37,917 nt of DNA from Patescibacteria group bacterium (lineage in GTDB: Bacteria > Patescibacteriota > Saccharimonadia > Saccharimonadales > OMJO01), in contig JBBTTS010000014.1 of NCBI GenBank assembly GCA_038064135.1, positions 2,036 to 39,952 on the forward strand. Direction: 5' to 3'. This document shows positions 2,697 through 24,378 of this stretch, one piece after another. The position numbers and the translations under genes are program-made. Positions within the stretch are counted from its first letter, which is position 1, and every line of letters starts with the position of its first letter. The notes beneath the pieces are model-generated. The model ran no database searches and was not told the DNA's origin. It saw nothing but the letters and a program-made list of their open reading frames with translations.

Positions 2697-3758
2697 GTGA
2701 AAACGCTAAAGCTTGATGGCAAGCAACAAAAGGCACTCAACTTCGCCGTTATCGGGGCTCTAGTTGTTGGTTTTATTATATTAAGACGTTATTTGGCAAT
2801 CATTATTACAGCCGCAATTGCTGTTTACATTTTTTATCCAATTTTTAATTGGCTAAAGAAAAAAACCAAACGTGAAGGTGCTTCGGCCGCCTTAACTTTG
2901 GTCTTAGTGCTTTTGCTTGCAATAGTCCCACTTACACTTTTAATACTGGTAACTTTGCAGCAATTTTCTGATGCGATATCCAATGCTATAAACTATATAG
3001 CCTCAAATAACCTTGGGGTAGTGGCGCAAAGCTCCATAGATTCTGTAAACGTGTTCTTAGAAAAAATAACTTTTAACACCCTTCATTTAGATTATGAAAC
3101 CTTAAAAAACTTTTTCTCTACTTATGGAAGCACAATCGCATCTTTTTTTGTTAATTTCTTACGCACTTCACTTGGAAGTGTTCCTGGCATGATCACCAAT
3201 TTAATACTTTTTGTTTATGTTTTTACAGCCTTAATGCTCCACCACCAATCTTTAATTAAATATGCTAAAGATCTAAACCCGCTAGGTAACGAAGTCTCAA
3301 ATTTGTATTTTTCACGGGCTGCGGCCATGACTAAGGGAATGGTTAGGGGGCAATTTATTATTGCTTTTGCTCAAGGTATCACTGGAGCTTTTACACTTTG
3401 GGTGGCTGGAATTGAGTTTTTTGCACCCATGGCATTAATATTGAGTTTATTATCAATAATTCCACTTGGTGGCGGAATTGTAACTGTACCGATTGGGTTA
3501 ATATTAGCCTTAACGGGTAATTTTTGGGGTGGTATTTTTGTTTTGGCATCACACTTTTTAATTGTTACCAACATAGATAATTTACTACGTCCAATATTAG
3601 TACCAAAAGAAGCAAGGTTAAACTCGGCCCTAACTATGCTTTCGGTGTTTTCGGGTATAGCATTGTTTGGATTTCTGGGAATTGTAATTGGCCCCGTTTT
3701 AATGATATTAATTGTTACGACAATAAACGTATATCTACAAACCAAGACAGCTAGTTAA
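2697..3758 (+). CDS. AI-2E family transporter (PerM/UPF0118)
   Basis: GTG start; about 8 TM segments; family-typical NIDNLLRPILV segment near the C-terminus. Confidence 0.85.
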   Translation: MKTLKLDGKQQKALNFAVIGALVVGFIILRRYLAIIITAAIAVYIFYPIFNWLKKKTKREGASAALTLVLVLLLAIVPLTLLILVTLQQFSDAISNAINYIASNNLGVVAQSSIDSVNVFLEKITFNTLHLDYETLKNFFSTYGSTIASFFVNFLRTSLGSVPGMITNLILFVYVFTALMLHHQSLIKYAKDLNPLGNEVSNLYFSRAAAMTKGMVRGQFIIAFAQGITGAFTLWVAGIEFFAPMALILSLLSIIPLGGGIVTVPIGLILALTGNFWGGIFVLASHFLIVTNIDNLLRPILVPKEARLNSALTMLSVFSGIALFGFLGIVIGPVLMILIVTTINVYLQTKTAS

Positions 3759-14291: not shown

Positions 14292-15317
14292 ATGTCTTAT
14301 CAAAATGCCAAAATTGCTGAAGTTGGCCAGCAACTCATGGGGCGCATAACAACCGAAGGAAAGGCTGTACTGCGAAGTCCAGTATTTAGAGCGTTGTTTG
14401 GAGAGTTAAAAACGCTACCCCCAGAGCAGAGGGGCAGTTTTGGTAAAGAGCTCAATCAGCTAAAAAATGAGTTAGAAGTAGCCGTTAAATCAGCGACAAA
14501 TCCTGAGCAAGCCCTTCCACCTATCGATGTAACGGCACCATTTGATATTAATGTGTCTGCCGATAGACGCCCAAGCCTTTTGCCAACGCAGCAAGGCAGC
14601 CGCCATCCACTATTGACCGAACTGGACACCATACTCGACATTTATAATCGCATGGGTTTTACAGCGATAGAGTCGAGGCAGTTAGACGACGACTATCATA
14701 TGTTTGCCAGCCTTAACTTTCCCGAGGGACACCCTGCGCGCGACGATTTTGACACTTTTATGACCGAAGAAGGTTTAATTGCGCCGGCTCACACTAGCAC
14801 CATGCAAAACCGCGTGTTAGTACAACACAGAGCCAACCTAGAGCAAGGCGAACCAATCGCCGTTGTTATTCCAGGTCGTGTTTTCCGTAACGAAGATATC
14901 GACGTTACGCATGAGCATACATTTTATCAGCTGGAGGGCGTATACGTCGGTAAAGGCATAAATGTTGGAAACCTCATCGCAACTCTAAAAGCCTTTATGA
15001 GCGAGTATTTTGGCCAAGAGTTGAACGCTAAACTGCAGCCGTTTTATTTTCCGTTTACCGAGCCTAGTTTTGAGTTTGCCATAGAACGGCCAGAGATTTT
15101 GCGTCGCGGCAATACCGAGGCGGATATGTGGTTAGAGCTTTTAGGTTGCGGCATGATCCACCCCAATGTGTTGAAAGAGGCTGACATCGACCCTAACATT
15201 TATACTGGATTTGCTTGGGGCGGTGGCATAGAGCGCTTAGTGATGATGAAAAACCAAATAGAAGACATCCGCCATTTCGAAAGCGGTAAACTAGACTTCC
15301 TGAGGCAATTCAAATGA
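14292..15317 (+). CDS. pheS: phenylalanine--tRNA ligase alpha subunit
   Basis: Class II aaRS motifs: HPARD, FRNEDIDVTHEHTFYQLEG, GFAWGGGIERL. Confidence 0.97.
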   Translation: MSYQNAKIAEVGQQLMGRITTEGKAVLRSPVFRALFGELKTLPPEQRGSFGKELNQLKNELEVAVKSATNPEQALPPIDVTAPFDINVSADRRPSLLPTQQGSRHPLLTELDTILDIYNRMGFTAIESRQLDDDYHMFASLNFPEGHPARDDFDTFMTEEGLIAPAHTSTMQNRVLVQHRANLEQGEPIAVVIPGRVFRNEDIDVTHEHTFYQLEGVYVGKGINVGNLIATLKAFMSEYFGQELNAKLQPFYFPFTEPSFEFAIERPEILRRGNTEADMWLELLGCGMIHPNVLKEADIDPNIYTGFAWGGGIERLVMMKNQIEDIRHFESGKLDFLRQFK

Positions 15318-15319
15318 AA
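15301..15319 (+). repeat. junction repeat copy 1: TGAGGCAATTCAAATGAAA
   Basis: pheS 3' end (..LRQFK*) overlapping the next ATG as ATGA. Confidence 0.9.
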
Positions 15320-15652
15320 ATTGTTGAGAAAATATCGGTAGCGGAGCTCGAAGAAATGGCTCAAAAAATGGATGGAAACTTGGTAAAAGCCGATGTGGAC
15401 GTAGTTAAAAAAATAGTGATTATCGATATGCCTATGCACTTTGAGGGTGAGCAAGAGTTATTAAAAGATGGTTCTAAGCAGAAGGATCTTTGGGGAATCA
15501 ACTTGTTGCCAGCGAAGTATGGTACGGATGATTTTATTGTTTATAACTCGATGATAAACATTAAGCCTCTTGTAAATCCAAGTATGAGTGTTTTATCAGA
15601 AGATATTCGCCAACAGATAAAATCGATCATCAAAGAGGTTGTCCATGAGTAA
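15314..15652 (+). CDS. small hypothetical protein (resembles CPR-enriched DUF5674-type proteins, from memory)
   Basis: ATGA overlap with the pheS stop; 112 aa; GSKQKDLWGINLLP...YNSMINIKP segment. Confidence 0.6.
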   Translation: MKIVEKISVAELEEMAQKMDGNLVKADVDVVKKIVIIDMPMHFEGEQELLKDGSKQKDLWGINLLPAKYGTDDFIVYNSMINIKPLVNPSMSVLSEDIRQQIKSIIKEVVHE

Positions 15653-15959
15653 CTACCACACAAATTCATTGAAGAATGCTGACGTATTTACAGTTATGGG
15701 CTCTGTGTACGCCGAGGTGGCTCGATACGATTCTGCAATAGGAGCCGATCAAGCCGATCAAGCCGATCAAGCGATTTTAAGAGCAATGGAACTGATTGAT
15801 TTTTCTCAAAACTTAAATACATTAAACGCTGCCCAAAAGATGGAAATTGATAGGTTTGGATCGCTATTGAAAGACCGAGCTAAGTTGCGAGAGAATAGTA
15901 ACTTTGATGACTATCTAATGCCATTTGCGTTGGCGGCGAGAATGAGGCAATTCAAATGA
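15645..15959 (+). CDS. small hypothetical protein with ADQADQADQ repeat
   Basis: ATG at 15645 with AAAGAGG 6 nt upstream (the track starts at the TTG at 15639); overlaps the previous stop; ends ..MRQFK* inside junction repeat copy 2. Confidence 0.5.
   Translation: MSNYHTNSLKNADVFTVMGSVYAEVARYDSAIGADQADQADQAILRAMELIDFSQNLNTLNAAQKMEIDRFGSLLKDRAKLRENSNFDDYLMPFALAARMRQFK
15744..15770 (+). repeat. perfect 9-bp x3 tandem repeat GCCGATCAA
   Basis: Read directly; in-frame, encodes ADQADQADQ. Confidence 0.9.
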
Positions 15960-15961
15960 AA
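15943..15961 (+). repeat. junction repeat copy 2: TGAGGCAATTCAAATGAAA
   Basis: Identical 19-mer; identity extends to 20 nt (ATGAGG...) with copy 3. Confidence 0.9.
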
Positions 15962-16300
15962 GTTGTAAAAAGAAGTACCAATGATATCCAAAAAGAGGAG
16001 GCTCATGGTGGGAGCGGTGCCAGAAAAGTGTACGCGTCACCCGATCATCTAAAGAGCGCGCATTTTGAAATGATGACTCACGGATATTTACCAGCAGGTA
16101 AAACTTTTGATTGGCATGAGCACGTGGATACGGAGGAAATCATGGTTGTATTAAAAGGTATTGGTGAAGTTCACGATAAAGATGGTCAATATTCTTACGA
16201 GGCTGGTGACGTTTTTGTTTTTCCGACTAACACGCAGCACAAGATTCACAACCCCAGCAGCGAACAGCACGAAATGATATTTGTCAGGGTAAAAGTATGA
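15956..16300 (+). CDS. cupin-domain protein
   Basis: Cupin motifs WHEHVDTEE(x)VVLKG and GDVFVFPTNTQHKIHN. Confidence 0.8.
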   Translation: MKVVKRSTNDIQKEEAHGGSGARKVYASPDHLKSAHFEMMTHGYLPAGKTFDWHEHVDTEEIMVVLKGIGEVHDKDGQYSYEAGDVFVFPTNTQHKIHNPSSEQHEMIFVRVKV

Positions 16301-16316
16301 GGCAATTCAAATGAAA
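16298..16316 (+). repeat. junction repeat copy 3: TGAGGCAATTCAAATGAAA
   Basis: Identical 19-mer. Here its TGA is the cupin stop, and GAGG sits 8 nt before the ATG at 16311. Confidence 0.9.
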
Positions 16317-16976
16317 ACCGCAATTATTACTGGAGCAAGTGATGGAATCGGGGCTGCAATAGCCGAAAGATTGAGCTCAGACCATCAACTAATTCTTTGT
16401 GGACGTGATGAAGAAAAGTTAAAAGTGGTTAGTGAAAAGTGTGGTAACGCAAAATATTTTGCTTTTGATGTGAACAATGCAAAGCAACGAAATGATTTTT
16501 TTGATCAAGTTTCAAAAGTTGATACGTTAATAAACAATGCAGGTGTGTGGCACAAAGTTGGTGATCTAGAAACACTGAGTGATGAGAAAATTTTAGAGGT
16601 ACTCAATACTAATTTAGTCGCTCAGATACTTATTACCAGAGGGCTTTTACTAAAACTCAAAGAGTCTGTCGAAGGGGCAATTATAAATATAATTTCAAAG
16701 TCCGGTATTGTCGCACAAGCTGGCCAGTCCGTTTATACCGCTAGCAAATACGGGATGCGTGGTTTTACGGACGTCCTAAGGCAAGATTTAAAAGAATCCA
16801 GTATCCGTGTGGGAGCAGTATTTCAATCCGGCACAAACACTCAAATGTTTGCTAAAGCGGGCGATGAGTTTGCGGTAGAAACCTTTACGGAACCGAAGGA
16901 TCTTGCGGAGGTAGTAGCATTTATGCTAAGCCGTCCTGAAAAGTTATGGATAAATGAAGTCATGGTAGAGAAATGA
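16311..16976 (+). CDS. short-chain dehydrogenase/reductase (SDR)
   Basis: TGASDGIG cofactor motif, NNAG, catalytic YTASK. Confidence 0.9.
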   Translation: MKTAIITGASDGIGAAIAERLSSDHQLILCGRDEEKLKVVSEKCGNAKYFAFDVNNAKQRNDFFDQVSKVDTLINNAGVWHKVGDLETLSDEKILEVLNTNLVAQILITRGLLLKLKESVEGAIINIISKSGIVAQAGQSVYTASKYGMRGFTDVLRQDLKESSIRVGAVFQSGTNTQMFAKAGDEFAVETFTEPKDLAEVVAFMLSRPEKLWINEVMVEK

Positions 16977-19487: not shown

Positions 19488-21248
19488 GTGATTCGGCTGC
19501 GTTGGCTTGCTTCGCTGGCGCTACTCGTAAGCTTTTTACTAACACCGTTGGTTGCTAGTGCAGATCTGCAAGATTTCACCATTACCAACTTCGATGCCGA
19601 CTATACACTGACCACAGAAGATCCCCAAGGGCTGTTAATAGTCAAAGAGCGTATCGACGTAGTTTTTACCAATAATAATCATGGGATTGAGCGGGCTCTA
19701 CCAGATAAGTATAAGGGCAAAAAACAGAACATTAGTAATATTCAAGCCTCCAAGGCAGACGGCAGTGCTTGGCCATTTAGCACCTACACTACCAATGATA
19801 ACTTGGTAATACGAATTGGCGACCCAAATCAGACAGTAACTGGCCCGCAAACATTTATAATTAACTACCAACAAGAGAATGTAATTAGTTTTTATGATGA
19901 CCACGATGAACTTTATTGGGACATTAACGGCGACCAATGGGCACAGCCCTTTACTAAAGTCACTGCAAACTTCCATTTGCCCACCGCAGTAAAATTAAAC
20001 CAGACCAAATGCTTTGCCGGCAAGTACGGCGAAAGTTCGCAGCAATGTAGTGTTTCAAAAACAAGTGACGGTATAAAAGTCGAAACGCTAAGAGCACTCC
20101 AGCCATACGAAACCTTGACTGGGTTAATTAGCATACAAAAAGGCAGTTTTGCCCAACCAACTAGGGTTGATTGGCTGAAAGAAAACCTCAAAAATATATT
20201 ATCGTTTTTGGCGTTGCCGATACTAGTTTTATTGCCTAGTTTTCGGTATTGGTATAAAAATGGCAAAGATTCAAAAGGTCGAGGCGTTATTGTTTCTCAG
20301 TATGACGCACCTGACAAATTGCGACCAGCAGAAGTTGGGACATTAGTTGATTACCGAGTAGACAACAGAGATATATCGGCAACAATTATAGACCTAGCAA
20401 TACGCAAATATTTAAAGATTATTGAAACCAAAAAAGATAGATTTTTGTTAAAAGACAAGTTGACATACGAGTTTGAGCTAATAAATCCAAGTACCACAGG
20501 ACTAAAAAGCTATGAACGAGATATTTTATGGGGAATATTCGGCGCCAAAACCGAAGTTGACATCCAGGTGGGTCAAATAGTCAACGTCAATGATTTAAAG
20601 GGCAAGATGTACAAAGTCATTCAGGAAGTCCGAGAAACGGTTAGTTTGTCTTTGGCTCAAGAAGGATATTTTAATGGAAGCCCCCTTAGGGTGGCTGGAA
20701 AGCTTTTTCTTGTCGTAACTGCTGTAGTCATCTCATTATTTGTTTTTGGCGCTATTTTGGGAATATGGTATGTTTTTGGCGGTTTAATAACCACGGCGTT
20801 CTTGATAATCTTTGCAATGTTGATGCCCAAAAGAACCGAAAAAGGAGTGATGGCAAAAGAACATATTGAAGGTCTGAAGCTATATTTGTCAGTTGCCGAA
20901 AAAGAAAGATTAAAGATGCTTCAGAGCCCGGATTCTCCCTACGCAAAAAAATCTTTAGGGCCGAAGCGAACCGTAGAATTATTCGAGAAATTGTTGCCAT
21001 TCGCCGTAGCCCTAGGCGTAGAAAACGCTTGGGCAAAACAGTTTGAAGACATCTACAAATCACCTCCTGATTGGTATAGCGGAAATTGGACTACCTTTAA
21101 TGCGTTGGTTTTTGCCAACAGTTTGTCGACCTCGTTAAATACAATGGGTGCTAATTTTTCACCACCAAGTAACTCTGGCAGCAGTGGATTTTCGGGTGGC
21201 GGAGGCTTCTCCGGCGGTGGTGGTGGAGGTGGTGGTGGTGGCTGGTAG
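19488..21248 (+). CDS. DUF2207-domain membrane protein with poly-Gly C-terminus
   Basis: The GTG at 19488 gives a signal peptide IRLRWLASLALLVSFLLTPLVASA (the track's GTG at 19467 overlaps pheT). Large exported domain, TM cluster, and a C-terminal SGSSGFSGGGGFSGGGGGGGGGGW typical of DUF2207. Confidence 0.8.
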   Translation: MIRLRWLASLALLVSFLLTPLVASADLQDFTITNFDADYTLTTEDPQGLLIVKERIDVVFTNNNHGIERALPDKYKGKKQNISNIQASKADGSAWPFSTYTTNDNLVIRIGDPNQTVTGPQTFIINYQQENVISFYDDHDELYWDINGDQWAQPFTKVTANFHLPTAVKLNQTKCFAGKYGESSQQCSVSKTSDGIKVETLRALQPYETLTGLISIQKGSFAQPTRVDWLKENLKNILSFLALPILVLLPSFRYWYKNGKDSKGRGVIVSQYDAPDKLRPAEVGTLVDYRVDNRDISATIIDLAIRKYLKIIETKKDRFLLKDKLTYEFELINPSTTGLKSYERDILWGIFGAKTEVDIQVGQIVNVNDLKGKMYKVIQEVRETVSLSLAQEGYFNGSPLRVAGKLFLVVTAVVISLFVFGAILGIWYVFGGLITTAFLIIFAMLMPKRTEKGVMAKEHIEGLKLYLSVAEKERLKMLQSPDSPYAKKSLGPKRTVELFEKLLPFAVALGVENAWAKQFEDIYKSPPDWYSGNWTTFNALVFANSLSTSLNTMGANFSPPSNSGSSGFSGGGGFSGGGGGGGGGGW

Positions 21249-21264
21249 CCAAGAAATTCTACTG

Positions 21265-21293
21265 TTGGAATAAATTGATAAAAATTGTATAAT
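21265..21293 (+). promoter_or_regulatory. candidate sigma70 promoter TTGGAA-17-TATAAT
   Basis: Perfect -10 at 21288-21293 with 17-nt spacing to TTGGAA; located just after the DUF2207 stop and facing the ORF-poor region. Confidence 0.4.
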
Positions 21294-21418
21294 ACTACAG
21301 CTTTTGGTCGAGAAATGCTCCCAAATAGCACCTTAACAGGTACAGAATCATAGTATTTTAGTGATTGCGCATGTAACCGACTTATTAAAATTTTGATTTG
21401 TTAGCTACATGTGTAATC

Positions 21419-21486
21419 TAGGACGTATTTGGAAGGATTATGGTCTTATGTCCTAAAGTCCGAGAGTTCGAGTCTCTACGACCACT
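21419..21486 (+). other. structured leader element: 6-bp stem (TAGGAC/GTCCTA) followed by a T-arm-like hairpin and tRNA 3'-end-like tail
   Basis: GAGAG-TTCGAGT-CTCT(A) hairpin at 21462-21478, then CGACCAC. There is no matching 5' acceptor strand or anticodon arm, so this is not a tRNA. Confidence 0.3.
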
Positions 21487-21634
21487 TGTTCTGATTGGTT
21501 CACAAAAATGCTGTTCACAGCTAAGTATACCACCCGGTAATACTAGGGCAACAATGTTTACTTAGTCATTATGGACGACGTAGTAGCCAGCAAAATGTTA
21601 CCCCGATCCCTACTCACCCAAGGAGGTGATTTAC

Positions 21635-21787
21635 ATGACCTTTCGAGGTCGATGCGGTGGTCGCAAGAACCGTCCGTCGGCTTGCCCAAAATGTAAGGGT
21701 AAGTTGTCTAACGCATTTGGGAAGTTGACTTGCAGTCATTGCGGCAACTCGGGCACATGCCCAGGCTGTCCCGACTGCGGTCGGTAA
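21635..21787 (+). CDS. 50-aa basic, Cys-rich (8 Cys) zinc-ribbon-like mini-protein
   Basis: Too short for the ORF track. Preceded by AAGGAGGTGAT (11 nt perfectly complementary to the 16S 3' tail) 4 nt before the ATG. Translation: MTFRGRCGGRKNRPSACPKCKGKLSNAFGKLTCSHCGNSGTCPGCPDCGR, with CPKC, CSHC and CPGCPDC. Confidence 0.6.
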   Translation: MTFRGRCGGRKNRPSACPKCKGKLSNAFGKLTCSHCGNSGTCPGCPDCGR

Positions 21788-21914
21788 CCCGAGGGGGCGT
21801 GACAGGACTATGAGAACAATTTGTGCCCCAAAAGGCCTTATTTTCACTTGTACCTGTTACGTCACCAATGTAAATTTACAAAAAATATTAAGTTTTTATT
21901 GTTGACGTCGGCTA

Positions 21915-21943
21915 TTGATTAATAGGTAAAAACGTTGTAAACT
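21915..21943 (+). promoter_or_regulatory. candidate promoter TTGATT-17-TAAACT
   Basis: Spacing and hexamers read directly; AT-rich context upstream of the tRNA-like element. Confidence 0.3.
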
Positions 21944-22096
21944 GGTCATCGTAATTGTGGTTGAGTTTAATTCGATTCCCCTGTTACGAACGTTGACAGA
22001 TGAAGAAACTACCCATTGAAAATGTTCCATGGGACGGTGCTGTTTGAAAATATAAAGTAGTTAAACAATACCGTCTCTATGATGAGGCAAATTTCA

Positions 22097-22175
22097 CGGG
22101 TAGAGCCAAAGTATCTGGGTTGCGGGCGCGACACTTGATATGGTTGGTAAGTTGGTTCGATTCCAGCCTACCCGA
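22097..22175 (+). ncRNA. tRNA-like element (acceptor stem, D-arm-like and T-arm intact; no anticodon arm)
   Basis: CGGGTAG/CTACCCG perfect 7-bp acceptor plus A73; T-arm GTTGG-TTCGATT-CCAGC; D-like GCCA-AAGTATCTGGG-TTGC. The 27 nt where the anticodon arm should be has no 5-bp/7-nt-loop solution. Confidence 0.45.
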
Positions 22176-22192
22176 CGAAGGGGTATTGGATT

Positions 22193-22214
22193 AGCAAAAA
22201 AGACGTTTTTTGCT
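22193..22214. terminator. A6/T6 hairpin AGCAAAAAA-GACG-TTTTTTGCT (weak, possibly bidirectional terminator)
   Basis: 9-bp perfect stem read directly, 18 nt after the tRNA-like element. Confidence 0.35.
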
Positions 22215-22223
22215 TCTTCAAAA

Positions 22224-22486
22224 CCCTTCGGGGGAGTATCGGACCAATACGGGTCCCCACCTCGCCGAGGTTCGATACTCCCACCTTCGCGGAGTGCTTG
22301 ACAAATCGTTATTACGGTTCACGCCCCCCTTTCGTGGATCGGTGGTCGTCAAGCACTCCGCATTAAACCGGCCCCCCAAAGAGCCGGAAACTGGGGAGCG
22401 GGGAGCGCCAAGCAAATCAACCTAAGCATTGGGCTGGAATGCAAAGGTTGGAGTAGCTTTGGCTGCCCCCCGCTTCCCTTCGAATA
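22224..22486 (+). ncRNA. unassigned GC-rich structured RNA: four consecutive helices with 5-7 nt linkers
   Basis: H1 22232-22241/22273-22282 (10 bp perfect, encloses GGACC/GGTCC). H2 22290-22302/22348-22360 (13 bp perfect) plus an inner 9-bp stem with loop CCCCCCTTT. H3 22368-22372/22383-22387. H4 22393-22478 (an 86-nt hairpin). Four G-U pairs on the plus strand would be A-C mismatches on the minus strand. Confidence 0.5.
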
Positions 22487-22605
22487 GGACAACCATTTTG
22501 CCCTTTAACGGCTAAATAAATCTTCATCTGTCCTTCTCTCTTAGCGTATTTAATTAAGTACTCTGAGCCAGAAGAAATTAAATTAACATGTTAAGCTTAA
22601 TTTAA

Positions 22606-24378
22606 ATGAAGCAAATTATTAAAATATTAAGTACCGCAAAACACCTTTGGCGTTACTATCTAGCTATAGGTGTCTTCACGGTATTTCTCAGCATATTAAC
22701 CCTTTCGCAGCCCATGTTCAGCGGCTGGGCTATAGACGAAATGCGAAAAGGCACATCGGCGCGGGTTGACTATGTAGTGATGCTGGCCATAGCAATTTTT
22801 GTTATTGATCTAATGCACAATTTGTTTAGCAACATCAGTGGATACTTGGGCGACCAAATGGCCGTTAAATTAAATCGGTCACTCAGCCTTAGCTACTACA
22901 AACATATACTTAGCTTGCCGCAAGGATATTTTGACACCGAGCTTTCCGGCAAAATAATCAATCGACTCAATCGTTCCATATTGCAAATCACAAATTTTAT
23001 GCAGATGATGAGCAATAACTTCTTGCAGTTTATTTTCAGTACTATTTTTTCACTGGCCATTGTTGCAATTTATAGTTGGCAAGTAGCCCTAATGTTGTTT
23101 GCTCTTTATCCAATTTACATATGGATGACTTTTCGAAGTAGCGGTACATGGCAGGCTTATCAGGCAAAAAAGAATCATTTTACAGATGTGGCTAGCGGTA
23201 GGTTTGCCGAAGCAATTAGCCAAGTAAGGGTAGTTAAAAGTTTTATCCAAGAAGCACGCGAACTTACCTTTTTCGATCATCTGCAGAAAAAAGTGGTTAA
23301 AACTAACGCGCCACAGTCGAAGTTTTGGCACGTACGTGACGTGCAGCGGCGACTGGTTTTAAACGTAATATTTTTAGCGGTTTACATTTATATTTTTAAG
23401 GGTGGCGCAACGGGCCAATTTACACCCGGTCAAGTTGTGGCACTGATTTTGTACGCATCTCAAATTAGGATACCGATATTCACGATTAGCTTTTTAGTGG
23501 AAAATACTCAAAAAGCCGTAGCCGACAGTAAAGATTACTTCGAAATATTAGAATTAAAACCAGAGATAAAAGATACTCCAAATGCCAAAAATATAAATGT
23601 AATTGCCGGAAGTATCGAGTTTAAAAATGTTGGATTTAGTTATGACAATAAACAAACCGTACTTAGAGATATTTCCCTAAAAATCAAGCCAGATAGTAAG
23701 GTAGCACTAGTCGGCGAAAGCGGTGAAGGTAAAACAACGCTTACAAATTTACTTATGAGATTATATGAACCCAGGCTTGGTAGTATTTCAATTGATGGCC
23801 AGGATATATCACAAGTAACTCAAAATAGCCTAAGGTCGCAAATCGGTGTAGTTTTTCAGGACCCGGCGCTATTTAGTGGCACAATTTTCGAAAATATAGC
23901 TTATTCTAATTCAAATGCTACAAAATATGACGTAATTAAGGCAGCCAAGGCCGCCAACGCTGACGATTTTATTGAACAGTTCGAAAATGGATATGATACC
24001 GAGATTGGTGAGCGTGGCTTAAAACTGAGTGGTGGACAAAAGCAGCGAATTGCAATTGCCAGAGCACTCTTGAAAGACGCGCCAATATTAGTGCTCGACG
24101 AAGCCACCAGTAGCTTAGATAGCAAAAGCGAAGCCATGGTGCAGGAAGCTTTAAAACGACTTATGAAAGGTCGGACAACCATTATAATCGCCCACAGACT
24201 AAGTACAATTCAGCATGTGGACCAGATTGTAACTATAAAAAATGGCAAGATTGATGAAGTTGGGTCACCAAGCAAACTGTCAAAATCTGATGGCATTTAT
24301 GCTCAACTACTTGAACTGCAACAAACCAAAAACGAAACCACCAAAAAGAAGTTGCGTGCCTACGATATTGCTAGCTAG
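22606..24378 (+). CDS. ABC transporter, fused permease/ATPase (MsbA-like type I exporter)
   Basis: Six-TM N-terminal half; Walker A GESGEGKTT, signature LSGGQKQR, Walker B ILVLDEATS, H-loop IAHRLST. Confidence 0.93.
   Translation: MKQIIKILSTAKHLWRYYLAIGVFTVFLSILTLSQPMFSGWAIDEMRKGTSARVDYVVMLAIAIFVIDLMHNLFSNISGYLGDQMAVKLNRSLSLSYYKHILSLPQGYFDTELSGKIINRLNRSILQITNFMQMMSNNFLQFIFSTIFSLAIVAIYSWQVALMLFALYPIYIWMTFRSSGTWQAYQAKKNHFTDVASGRFAEAISQVRVVKSFIQEARELTFFDHLQKKVVKTNAPQSKFWHVRDVQRRLVLNVIFLAVYIYIFKGGATGQFTPGQVVALILYASQIRIPIFTISFLVENTQKAVADSKDYFEILELKPEIKDTPNAKNINVIAGSIEFKNVGFSYDNKQTVLRDISLKIKPDSKVALVGESGEGKTTLTNLLMRLYEPRLGSISIDGQDISQVTQNSLRSQIGVVFQDPALFSGTIFENIAYSNSNATKYDVIKAAKAANADDFIEQFENGYDTEIGERGLKLSGGQKQRIAIARALLKDAPILVLDEATSSLDSKSEAMVQEALKRLMKGRTTIIIAHRLSTIQHVDQIVTIKNGKIDEVGSPSKLSKSDGIYAQLLELQQTKNETTKKKLRAYDIAS

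Follow-up and report, generated by a model that had tools for sequence, protein, structure and literature searches.

A putative rRNA-operon-style stable-RNA cassette upstream of an ABC exporter gene in Saccharibacteria

The locus and its helices

The window analysed in this study is a stretch of 37,917 nt from contig JBBTTS010000014.1 of a Patescibacteria group bacterium, and it represents ordinary chromosomal DNA (approximately 42% G+C) of a member of the Saccharibacteria (TM7). Its genes include pheS, pheT, a gene for a DUF2207 membrane protein, an ABC exporter, FKBP, glutaredoxin, thioredoxin reductase and genes of glycolysis and the pentose-phosphate pathway, and none of the window genes encodes an integrase, transposase, recombinase, relaxase, reverse transcriptase or Ro, Rsr or RtcB protein. 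The element in question is a compact array of four long helices (H1 to H4, 22224-22486), read in an initial annotation as a structured RNA, which lies in a 1357-nt gap between the end of the DUF2207 gene at 21248 and the ATG of the ABC exporter at 22606. The comparative data presented here suggest that the array is probably the 3' half of the interior of a single plus-strand non-coding RNA gene of approximately 650 nt (about 21915-22574). The explanation that is favoured, with moderate confidence, is that this gene is a cassette for a stable RNA built in the style of an rRNA operon, specific to the Saccharibacteria and present here as one of two tandem copies. The features of the unit and its 3' flank are as follows.

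21915-21943, plus strand: putative sigma-70 promoter, TTGATT-17 nt-TAAACT, read from the sequence and below the 9/12 threshold of the promoter scan
21949-21989, plus strand: conserved 5' hairpin in a boxB-like position, core GGTTGAG...CTCCC (RNAalifold helix 1)
21988-21998, plus strand: boxA-like sequence GAACGTTGACA, matching a family motif, G[CT]NCTTT[AG]ACAG, at a fixed position
21995-22006, plus strand: 5' strand of P1, the long-range closing (leader-trailer) helix, GACAGATGAAGA, pairing perfectly with 22521-22532
22031-22077, plus strand: long hairpin Ha, the first element within P1 (RNAalifold helix 3)
22097-22175, plus strand: degenerate tRNA-like element with discriminator A (RNAalifold helices 4-6)
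22177-22229, plus strand: H0, a GAAGGG/CCCTTC helix around a hairpin at 22193-22214 (RNAalifold helices 7-9)
22230-22285, plus strand: H1, a stem of 10-16 bp with a small internal branch (perfect 10-bp repeat; RNAalifold helices 10-11)
22289-22361, plus strand: H2, a stem of 13-14 bp (perfect repeat) enclosing a hairpin (about 22316-22340) with loop CCCCCCTTT
22368-22387, plus strand: H3, a CCGGC/GCCGG hairpin with a C-rich loop (comparison with L081, see below)
22393-22478, plus strand: H4, a hairpin of 86 nt (RNAalifold helices 15-16)
22521-22532, plus strand: 3' strand of P1, TCTTCATCTGTC, the complement of 21995-22006
22533-22574, plus strand: closing hairpin directly 3' of P1, terminator-like without a U tract (RNAalifold helix 18)
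22589-22597, plus strand: putative extended -10 of the ABC exporter (TGTTAAGCT), outside the RNA and 8 nt before the ATG at 22606

The base pairing originally described for the array was confirmed by direct reading. GGGAGTATCG at 22232-22241 is the exact reverse complement of 22273-22282 (H1, 10 of 10 bp), and CGGAGTGCTTGAC at 22290-22302 is that of 22348-22360 (H2, 13 of 13 bp), the latter stem lengthening to 14 bp through G22289/C22361. H3 joins CCGGC at 22368-22372 to GCCGG at 22383-22387 around the loop CCCCCAAAGA, H4 forms as described across 22393-22478, and the four reported G-U positions are indeed T/G, G/T, T/G and G/T. RNAfold gave -130.5 kcal/mol for 22224-22486 compared to -91.6 +/- 4.9 kcal/mol for dinucleotide shuffles (z-score, z, of -7.9), and the minus strand of the same range gave a z of -6.3. 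At least two perfect helices of 10 bp or more within 263 nt were seen in 0 of 500 shuffles, and no second 263-nt tile with two such helices was found anywhere in the window. Two parts of the description had to be amended. A three-way junction inside H1 is possible, but a rival 16-bp extended stem fits the changes in the nearest homologue slightly better (G-U to A-U and A-U to G-U at 22242/22272 and 22243/22271). Likewise, the helices of the array hold but the array is not self-contained: CCCTTC at 22224-22229 is the 3' strand of H0, whose partner GAAGGG (22177-22182) lies outside the range, and the whole belongs to a larger structure, the strands of whose closing helix lie 230 nt before the range and 35 nt after it.

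Homologues were sought through the ABC protein, all of whose close relatives come from Saccharibacteria assemblies; a look-up of identical proteins led back to the source genome itself (L080). The initial homologue set comprised 79 loci around ABC orthologues with 51-74% protein identity, and neither blastn nor nhmmer found a match to the 1.36-kb intergenic region among them. The nearest ABC protein (P0002, 83% identity) was the only one closer than this set among 5.8 billion proteins. Its contig, L081, carries the only true homologue of the H1-H4 region found through ABC homologues, spanning the whole region; the homologues P0003 and P0005 (75%) bear a unit with an unrelated interior. Comparison of the window with L081 gave identities of 36-39% at four-fold degenerate sites of three flanking genes (a level that amounts to saturation), 74-78% for coding DNA, 68% for the RNA unit and 72% for 22224-22486 (paired columns 85%, unpaired columns 54%). 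RNAalifold of the two sequences gave 164 shared pairs of which 21 are changed on both sides, compared to 1-6 in slid controls and with 0 of 500 shuffles matching it. Every helix is kept in L081 through compensatory changes despite the saturated neutral sites, and the 66 pairs of 22224-22486 include 7 compensatory and 6 one-sided changes, so that the compensatory substitutions on which the initial annotation had staked its reading are present. Given an identity of 72% against 36-39% at neutral sites together with these compensatory changes, the four helices are, on the comparative evidence, a real structure under selection. The unit is also non-coding, because the two sequences differ by indels of 9, 4, 4 and 1 nt and no open reading frame (ORF) with a Shine-Dalgarno sequence was found in the unit in either of them.

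The individual helices differ in how they have changed. H1 is the most conserved part and is nearly identical in L081 (20 pairs, 2 one-sided changes), whereas 7 of the 9 inner pairs of H0 have changed on both sides with the loop GAAGACGTT kept. In H2, 4 of 13 outer pairs show two-sided changes and the inner stem has been swapped altogether (CACG/CGTG to CGCAA/TTGCG) around an unchanged loop, CCCCCTTT. The H3 stem and its CCCCC run are identical although the loop is shorter in L081, and H4 has 2 compensatory and 4 one-sided changes among 25 pairs with a rebuilt apex. Runs of five to six C (GCCCCCCT in the H2 loop and GGCCCCCCAA in H3) are kept in both species. Further upstream, the 5' hairpin keeps its 15 pairs in both sequences, and Ha (14 pairs) shows 1 compensatory and 2 one-sided changes. 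A covariance model, which had been proposed as a check on the structure, could be built for H1-H3, but it matched the window and L081 only and nothing in 38 other loci.

A conserved frame around variable interiors

The conservation of the frame around the helices emerged only from reading the gaps of orthologous loci and not from blastn or nhmmer. Among the 77 orthologous loci sampled, approximately 20 species carry this frame, always in the gap upstream of the ABC gene and always on the ABC strand; unit-level statistics are based on 21 units and P1 covariation on 20. The cassettes sit between pheT/DUF2207 and the ABC exporter, in synteny and with vertical inheritance of their position. The promoters of the family lie directly after the upstream gene and are of a strong sigma-70 type (TTGCAA-17-TATAAT-like). 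The equivalent of the window promoter is TTGCAA-17-TATACT in L081, and 20 other units have a TTGCAA-like -35 and a TATAAT-like -10. The 5' hairpin recurs as TTGGTTGAG...CTCCCAA in approximately 20 units, with variants TCGG/CCGA and ACG/CGT. It is followed by the boxA-like motif, which overlaps the 5' strand of P1 and which matches the boxA consensus GYTCTTTAANA at 11 of 11 positions in L012 and L023 and at 9-10 of 11 in most units, a consensus that is gamma-proteobacterial and perhaps not the phylum's own.

The closing helix P1 covaries strongly. Its arms vary in sequence among the 20 units and yet remain complementary: 14 of 16 pairs show double changes, amounting to 72 cells compared to 27.8 +/- 4 in shuffles (0 of 500) and 10-24 in slid controls. 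P1 is 9-16 bp long across units, and its 3' strand lies 305-1011 nt downstream of the 5' strand, enclosing approximately 500 nt in the window. From the end of the 3' strand to the ABC ATG the distance is 72-103 nt in 17 units (74 nt in the window), the exceptions being L022b (47 nt), L067 (202 nt), L082 (253 nt) and the upstream copies of tandem pairs. The equivalent of the closing hairpin (CGTCTCCCAAAG...CTTTGGGAGACG) is followed by a T run, forming a canonical terminator, in approximately half of the related units, and a terminator scan found none at the closing hairpin of the window. A likeness was also observed between the 5' hairpin, in its 3' strand (CTCCCAAG), and the closing hairpin, in its 5' strand (CGTCTCCCAAAG), for example at 3280-3310 and 3925-3975 of L001, with the variants of the two hairpins changing together between species (CCCGA with CCCGA/CCCGG, TTCCCAA with TTCCCAA). 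This likeness could reflect a shared protein site or an alternative pairing between leader and terminator.

The interiors enclosed by P1 cannot be aligned between species, but all are very strongly structured. Their z ranges from -3.2 to -14.4 over the 21 units (-9.2 for this unit) compared to -0.7 to +1.6 for coding controls, and their G+C lies above that of the genome. The usual order is P1, a perfect hairpin of up to 25-30 bp, often a tRNA-like gene, further hairpins, sometimes a small ORF, and P1 again; Ha has the same position as the long hairpin of other units. Where sister species could be paired, compensatory changes again exceeded those of slid controls:

L001/L002: 14 compensatory pairs, slid controls 0-2
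L023/L061: 6 compensatory pairs, slid controls 0-2
L017/L067: 33 compensatory pairs, slid controls 2-6
L012/L013: 43 compensatory pairs, slid controls 2-4
L029/L022a: 36 compensatory pairs, slid controls 0-4

The last three alignments are of 48-58% identity and are less reliable. Four metagenome contigs (L008, L010, L014 and L025) have their first base 59-123 nt ahead of the ABC ATG, which places the break on the 3' border of the cassette or slightly within it, and L025 begins a few bases ahead of the P1 3' strand. Such breaks suggest either strain-level hypervariability or a failure of assembly or coverage over very stable hairpins.

The tRNA-like element of the window consists of a 7-bp acceptor stem (22097-22103 with 22168-22174) and a T arm (22153-22167, loop TTCGATT, of the GTTCGAnnC type), and an irregular long arm stands in place of the D and anticodon region. 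The acceptor stem and T arm are 100% identical in L081 and the middle varies. The element does not form a complete cloverleaf with a 7-nt anticodon loop that scores above threshold: ARAGORN called no tRNA or transfer-messenger RNA (tmRNA) gene in the window, nor any tRNA at 85% thresholds, and the Rfam tRNA model (RF00005) had no match at E<=10 in 21500-22700. Equivalent positions pass the Rfam tRNA threshold in L001, L018, L020, L023 and L072, with a near-normal tRNA-Lys(CTT) in L001 and L018 (65-67 bits). Versions in other units are aberrant, with an ATT anticodon (L002), 8-nt loops or very long anticodon stems, and approximately half of the units have no detectable tRNA-like element and yet keep the frame and the extreme structure. 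In one pair of sisters the anticodon loops are TTCTTAA (Lys CTT; L001 3436-3510) and CTATTAA (ATT; L002 1892-1967), and in another (L023 and L061) an 8-bp anticodon stem with an 8-nt loop covaries, CTAGAAAC/GTTTCTAG against CTGGAAAC/GTTTCCAG. By this comparison, the sister tRNA-like genes are conserved as structures and not as decoders.

A second unit with the same frame occupies 21265-21908, directly upstream, and the two tandem cassettes together take up approximately 1.3 kb. Tandem double units were found in L022, L035 and the window. The upstream unit has these parts:

21265-21293, plus strand: promoter TTGGAA-17-TATAAT, from the promoter scan
before the boxA-like sequence: 5' hairpin, TTTTGGTCGAG...CTCCCAAA
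21328-21340: boxA-like sequence GCACCTTAACAGG
21334-21345 with 21848-21859: P1
21635-21787, plus strand: ORF for a 50-aa Cys-rich zinc-ribbon protein (MTFRGRCGGRKNRPSACPKCKGKL...CPGCPDCGR) behind a perfect AAGGAGGTGATT Shine-Dalgarno sequence
21859-21908: closing hairpin

Its interior has a z of -4.9 and a sequence unrelated to that of the H1-H4 unit, and no similarity of H1-H4 to it or to any small ORF was detected. Approximately half of all units contain an ORF of 41-52 aa behind a perfect AAGGAGGTGATT, and these ORFs fall into a Cys-rich family A (L012, L013, L017 and L067), a family resembling DnaJ CxxCxGxG/anti-TRAP (L022 and L035) and a third (L018, L023 and L061). The zinc-ribbon ORF of the window had no homologue in a word-based search, and its resemblances to zinc-ribbon, DnaJ and anti-TRAP entries of Pfam and NCBIfam were all below threshold. 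The upstream cassette also holds a T-arm-like remnant without an acceptor stem (GAGAGTTCGAGTCTC, 21450-21486), which looks like a further decayed tRNA-like element.

The claim that the structure belongs to a plus-strand RNA was upheld. Single mismatches in Watson-Crick helices of the 21 units are G.T in 46 cases against A.C in 17, each of the 21 units folds more stably as the plus strand (alifold energies are -197.7 for plus and -169.7 for minus), and promoters, tRNA-like genes, ORFs and terminators share one orientation. The ABC gene itself appears to be expressed separately. Its ATG has no Shine-Dalgarno sequence, whereas the small ORFs of the units have AAGGAGGTGATT, and many orthologous loci, with a unit or without one, have (A/G)TGTTAAGCTTT 8-12 nt ahead of the ABC ATG (22589-22605 in the window, and L003, L004, L011, L017, L020, L054, L067, L070 and L073). 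Other ABC orthologues have TATACT or TACAAT at the extended -10 position. This suggests an extended -10 promoter that would give a leaderless or near-leaderless ABC mRNA. In the window the motif lies within a palindrome, TTAAGCTTAA, and an operator is an alternative for it.

Interpretation and alternative explanations

The comparisons establish a structure preserved by compensatory change, the strand that carries it, its frame and its distribution, and from these we infer a route that would involve Nus binding, processing and action in trans. Factors of the NusB/NusE type would bind the boxA-like site, and the long untranslated structured RNA would then be transcribed in a Rho-resistant manner. 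The boxA-bound factors would hold the leader near the polymerase, and P1 would form once the trailer emerges. P1 and the long perfect hairpins would be substrates for double-strand RNases, and the tRNA-like element would be a cleavage signal for RNase P and RNase Z. The product would be a stable H0-H4 RNA of approximately 300-350 nt, in which the loops CCCCCCUUU and CCCCCAAAGA and the H1 junction would be contact sites for G-rich RNA (e.g. Shine-Dalgarno regions) or for protein. The C-rich loops kept in both species suggest that pairing would occur in trans.

Several observations weigh against this explanation. H1-H4 has a single homologue, so the covariation of these helices rests on two sequences. 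The boxA-like copies of the window are weak when judged by the gamma-proteobacterial consensus (7 of 11 in this unit and 9 of 11 in the upstream unit), and at 12 bp P1 is a short helix by the standard of classical RNase III sites. Because the closing hairpin of this unit lacks a U tract, transcription may read through into the ABC gene, and C-rich apical loops are only mildly enriched in the family (12 of 275 loops compared to 3-8 for other bases). The promoter, 3' end and processing sites assigned to the unit are all predictions from sequence.

The initial annotation had suggested a long 5' leader or riboregulator of the exporter or, alternatively, an independent small RNA. A cis-acting leader (attenuator- or riboswitch-like) in which the hairpin after P1 controls read-through is unlikely. 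The unit does share the strand of the ABC gene and always directly precedes it, usually leaving 72-103 nt between the P1 3' strand and the ATG, and the hairpin directly after P1, a canonical terminator in approximately half of the units, lacks the U tract in the window, which would permit read-through. However, a dedicated leader is made improbable because the unit has its own putative promoter and closing hairpin, most ABC orthologues (approximately three quarters of the 77 loci, in some of which pheT abuts the ABC gene) have no unit, units occur in tandem with an upstream copy that does not adjoin the ABC gene, and there is no conserved ligand-binding core, with no similarity of interiors by sequence or covariance model beyond one sister genome. 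The conserved extended -10 before a Shine-Dalgarno-less ATG, seen in species with no unit as well, and the ORFs with perfect Shine-Dalgarno sequences inside several units also disagree with a leader. An independent small RNA comes closer to the data, but the array is a domain of an RNA gene of approximately 650 nt and not a free-standing small RNA. It is similarly improbable that the unit is the relic of a tRNA (Lys-CTT-like) transcription unit, with the tRNA decayed here and H1-H4 a functionless scaffold for stabilisation or processing. The series from a near-normal tRNA-Lys(CTT) in L001 and L018 through increasingly aberrant forms to the window, where the acceptor stem and T arm alone are kept, is what such decay would produce. 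Yet H1-H4 and its junctions are 72% identical where neutral sites are 36-39% identical, H1 is nearly invariant, the acceptor stem and T arm are 100% conserved between the window and L081 and so are not decaying freely, and approximately half of the units keep the frame and the extreme structure with no tRNA-like element.

The presence of an ORF of 41-52 aa from recurring families in approximately half of the units, including the upstream unit of the window (21635-21787), raises the question of whether the RNA is the structured untranslated part of a locus for a small Cys-rich zinc-ribbon protein, perhaps one that the neighbouring ABC transporter exports or works with, with the H1-H4 copy a regulatory or decayed paralogue. 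H1-H4 does occupy the position of the ORF in other units, and the locus is hypervariable and adjoins an exporter. This is nonetheless a rather remote explanation: this unit and those of L081, L001, L002, L082 and L034 are ORF-less yet conserved and structured, L081 has an ORF-less unit only, H1-H4 has no detectable similarity to the ORFs or the upstream unit, and the proteins are basic and zinc-ribbon-like rather than leader-peptide-like, next to an exporter without a peptidase domain. A feature acting at the DNA level (clustered palindromes resembling miniature inverted-repeat transposable elements, MITEs, or repetitive extragenic palindromes, an invertible promoter segment flanked by P1, or a single-strand DNA origin) is very improbable. 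The unusually long perfect stems, the 12-16 bp inverted repeat that P1 forms around approximately 500 bp, and the contigs L008, L010, L014 and L025 that end within or beside a unit are in its favour. However, the excess of G.T over A.C (46 against 17) and the greater stability of the plus strand in 21 of 21 units would be unexpected for double-stranded DNA palindromes and therefore argue against them. Relative to the ABC gene, all units and tRNA-like elements also point the same way and none was found inverted, the position is syntenic and vertically inherited, and the window genes include no recombinase, transposase or relaxase. Repeated copies of the element, the possibility that the initial annotation had itself raised against its reading, were not found: no second copy of a helix arm, allowing up to 1-2 mismatches, occurred in the window, in L081 or in approximately 700 kb of related loci, a search that covered approximately 4-5% of the source genome. 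The frame pattern had 13 matches in viral contigs, all attributable to chance (inside coding sequence, promoterless and with weak 9-10 bp repeats), and the H1 3' strand pattern had 0 matches in viral contigs and 3 chance matches in high-GC DNA of metagenome contigs. The MITE and inverton readings are thus disfavoured by these comparisons.

Known systems, significance and neighbouring observations

The leaders of rrn operons use boxB, boxA (GYTCTTTAANA) and a leader-trailer helix to attract the Nus antitermination complex and to bracket the mature RNA (PMC5725501, PMC10250234). The cassette resembles an rrn operon in having a promoter, a hairpin, a boxA-like sequence (up to 11 of 11 in relatives), a leader-trailer helix and tRNA or tRNA-like genes inside, all in the same order, and the window unit has both the hairpin at the boxB position and the covarying leader-trailer helix. 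It differs in that it encloses approximately 500 nt of hypervariable RNA and not 16S/23S rRNA (no rRNA match was found in the window or in 17 related loci), in its short P1 (9-16 bp) and in the small ORFs of some copies. In the suhB leader and in CRISPR arrays, a boxA likewise stands just after the promoter of a long, mostly untranslated transcript and acts on RNA polymerase by way of Nus factors. Unlike the cassette, the suhB leader and CRISPR arrays are not known to have a leader-trailer helix or tRNA-like parts. Regulation through boxA beyond rRNA has been described (PMC5725501).

The tRNA-like element has parallels in the t-elements of plant mitochondria, the mascRNA of MALAT1 and the tRNA-miRNA transcripts of gammaherpesviruses, in which the flanking RNA is freed when RNase P and RNase Z cleave the transcript at the mimic. 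The likeness lies in an intact acceptor stem and T arm, with no usable anticodon arm, inside a longer transcript with hairpins after it; however, those systems are eukaryotic, organellar or viral and show no homology, and cleavage in the cassette would have to be by analogy. GOLLD and ROOL are non-coding RNAs of several hundred nt with many helices and with tRNA genes or mimics nearby. The cassette is similar to these and to OLE and raiA in size, number of helices and absence of coding capacity, and to GOLLD and ROOL in its tRNA-like neighbours, but those RNAs have conserved sequence cores whereas the cassette keeps the frame only and its interior turns over between species. The 6C small RNA pairs with G-rich mRNA targets through C-rich loops (PMC6486639). 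H2 and H3 provide two hairpins with loops of approximately six C, CCCCCCTTT and CCCCCAAAGA (the latter preceded by a stem C), as in 6C (RF01066) and RsaE/RoxS; the hairpins of the cassette, however, sit in a far larger RNA, the C-loop trait is weak across the family, and RF01066 itself had no match at E<=10.

Searches against Rfam 15 (including GOLLD, ROOL, OLE and raiA) gave 0 matches at gathering score in the window, the E-value matches being at the level of chance, among them AbsR28 and miRNA families, and 17 related loci gave tRNA matches only. A tmRNA was rejected (no ARAGORN call and no Rfam match) and a permuted tmRNA was considered and dropped. Also dropped were a Y RNA (no Rsr or RtcB gene in the window), a retron (no reverse transcriptase), an integron attC site (no AAC...GTT cores and no intI) and, in view of the hydrophilic small proteins, a hok-like type I toxin mRNA. 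No account of an element of this kind in Saccharibacteria emerged from literature searches, and a preprint on the TM7x transcriptome states that small RNA has not yet been validated in TM7x (10.1101/2022.03.25.485537). The individual parts are of known kinds, and it is their combination (an rrn-like frame, a hypervariable structured interior, tRNA mimics, optional zinc-ribbon ORFs and a fixed locus) that is, as far as we can tell, undescribed.

The genomes of Saccharibacteria, members of the candidate phyla radiation (CPR)/Patescibacteria, are tiny and densely coded, and this one devotes approximately 1.3 kb to two RNA cassettes in tandem. Few sequences fold as strongly as the interiors of such cassettes (z down to -14), and yet the sequence of these interiors is almost wholly replaced between species. 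If the frame recruits the antitermination and processing machinery of rRNA, this would be a new use of that machinery, to make lineage-specific stable RNAs. A bolder proposal, which we regard as doubtful, is that the phylum produces its own fast-evolving, ornate RNAs on an rRNA-style production line (Nus antitermination, a leader-trailer helix and tRNA-like punctuation) and that these, through their long perfect hairpins or C-rich loops, act in trans and turn over in an arms race. If this were true, they might be diced into small duplex RNAs, or they might work as sponges for Shine-Dalgarno regions or as regulators of them. An arms race, such as that between epibiont and host or with phage, would then explain why sequence changes from species to species while structure persists, and no functional regulatory RNA would have been described in Saccharibacteria before these. 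The promoter, the GGTTGAG...CTCCC hairpin, the boxA-like motif and the covarying closing helix together provide a signature with which other CPR genomes can be searched.

Two further observations concern the genes upstream of the cassettes. At its C terminus the DUF2207 protein has a long run of Gly and a final Trp (...GGGGGGGGGGW*; 21200-21248 in the window), and several species share this ending. Between pheS and pheT, a 24-nt junction (TGAGGCAATTCAAATGAAA) occurs three times (15301-15324, 15943-15966 and 16298-16321), comprising a coding end ...RQFK, a stop codon overlapping the next ATG, and AAA, with RQFK ending two unrelated proteins. The pattern suggests that additional genes, namely a short-chain dehydrogenase and ORFs of 112, 106 and 114 aa, entered the pheS-pheT junction and that the junction was duplicated in the process.

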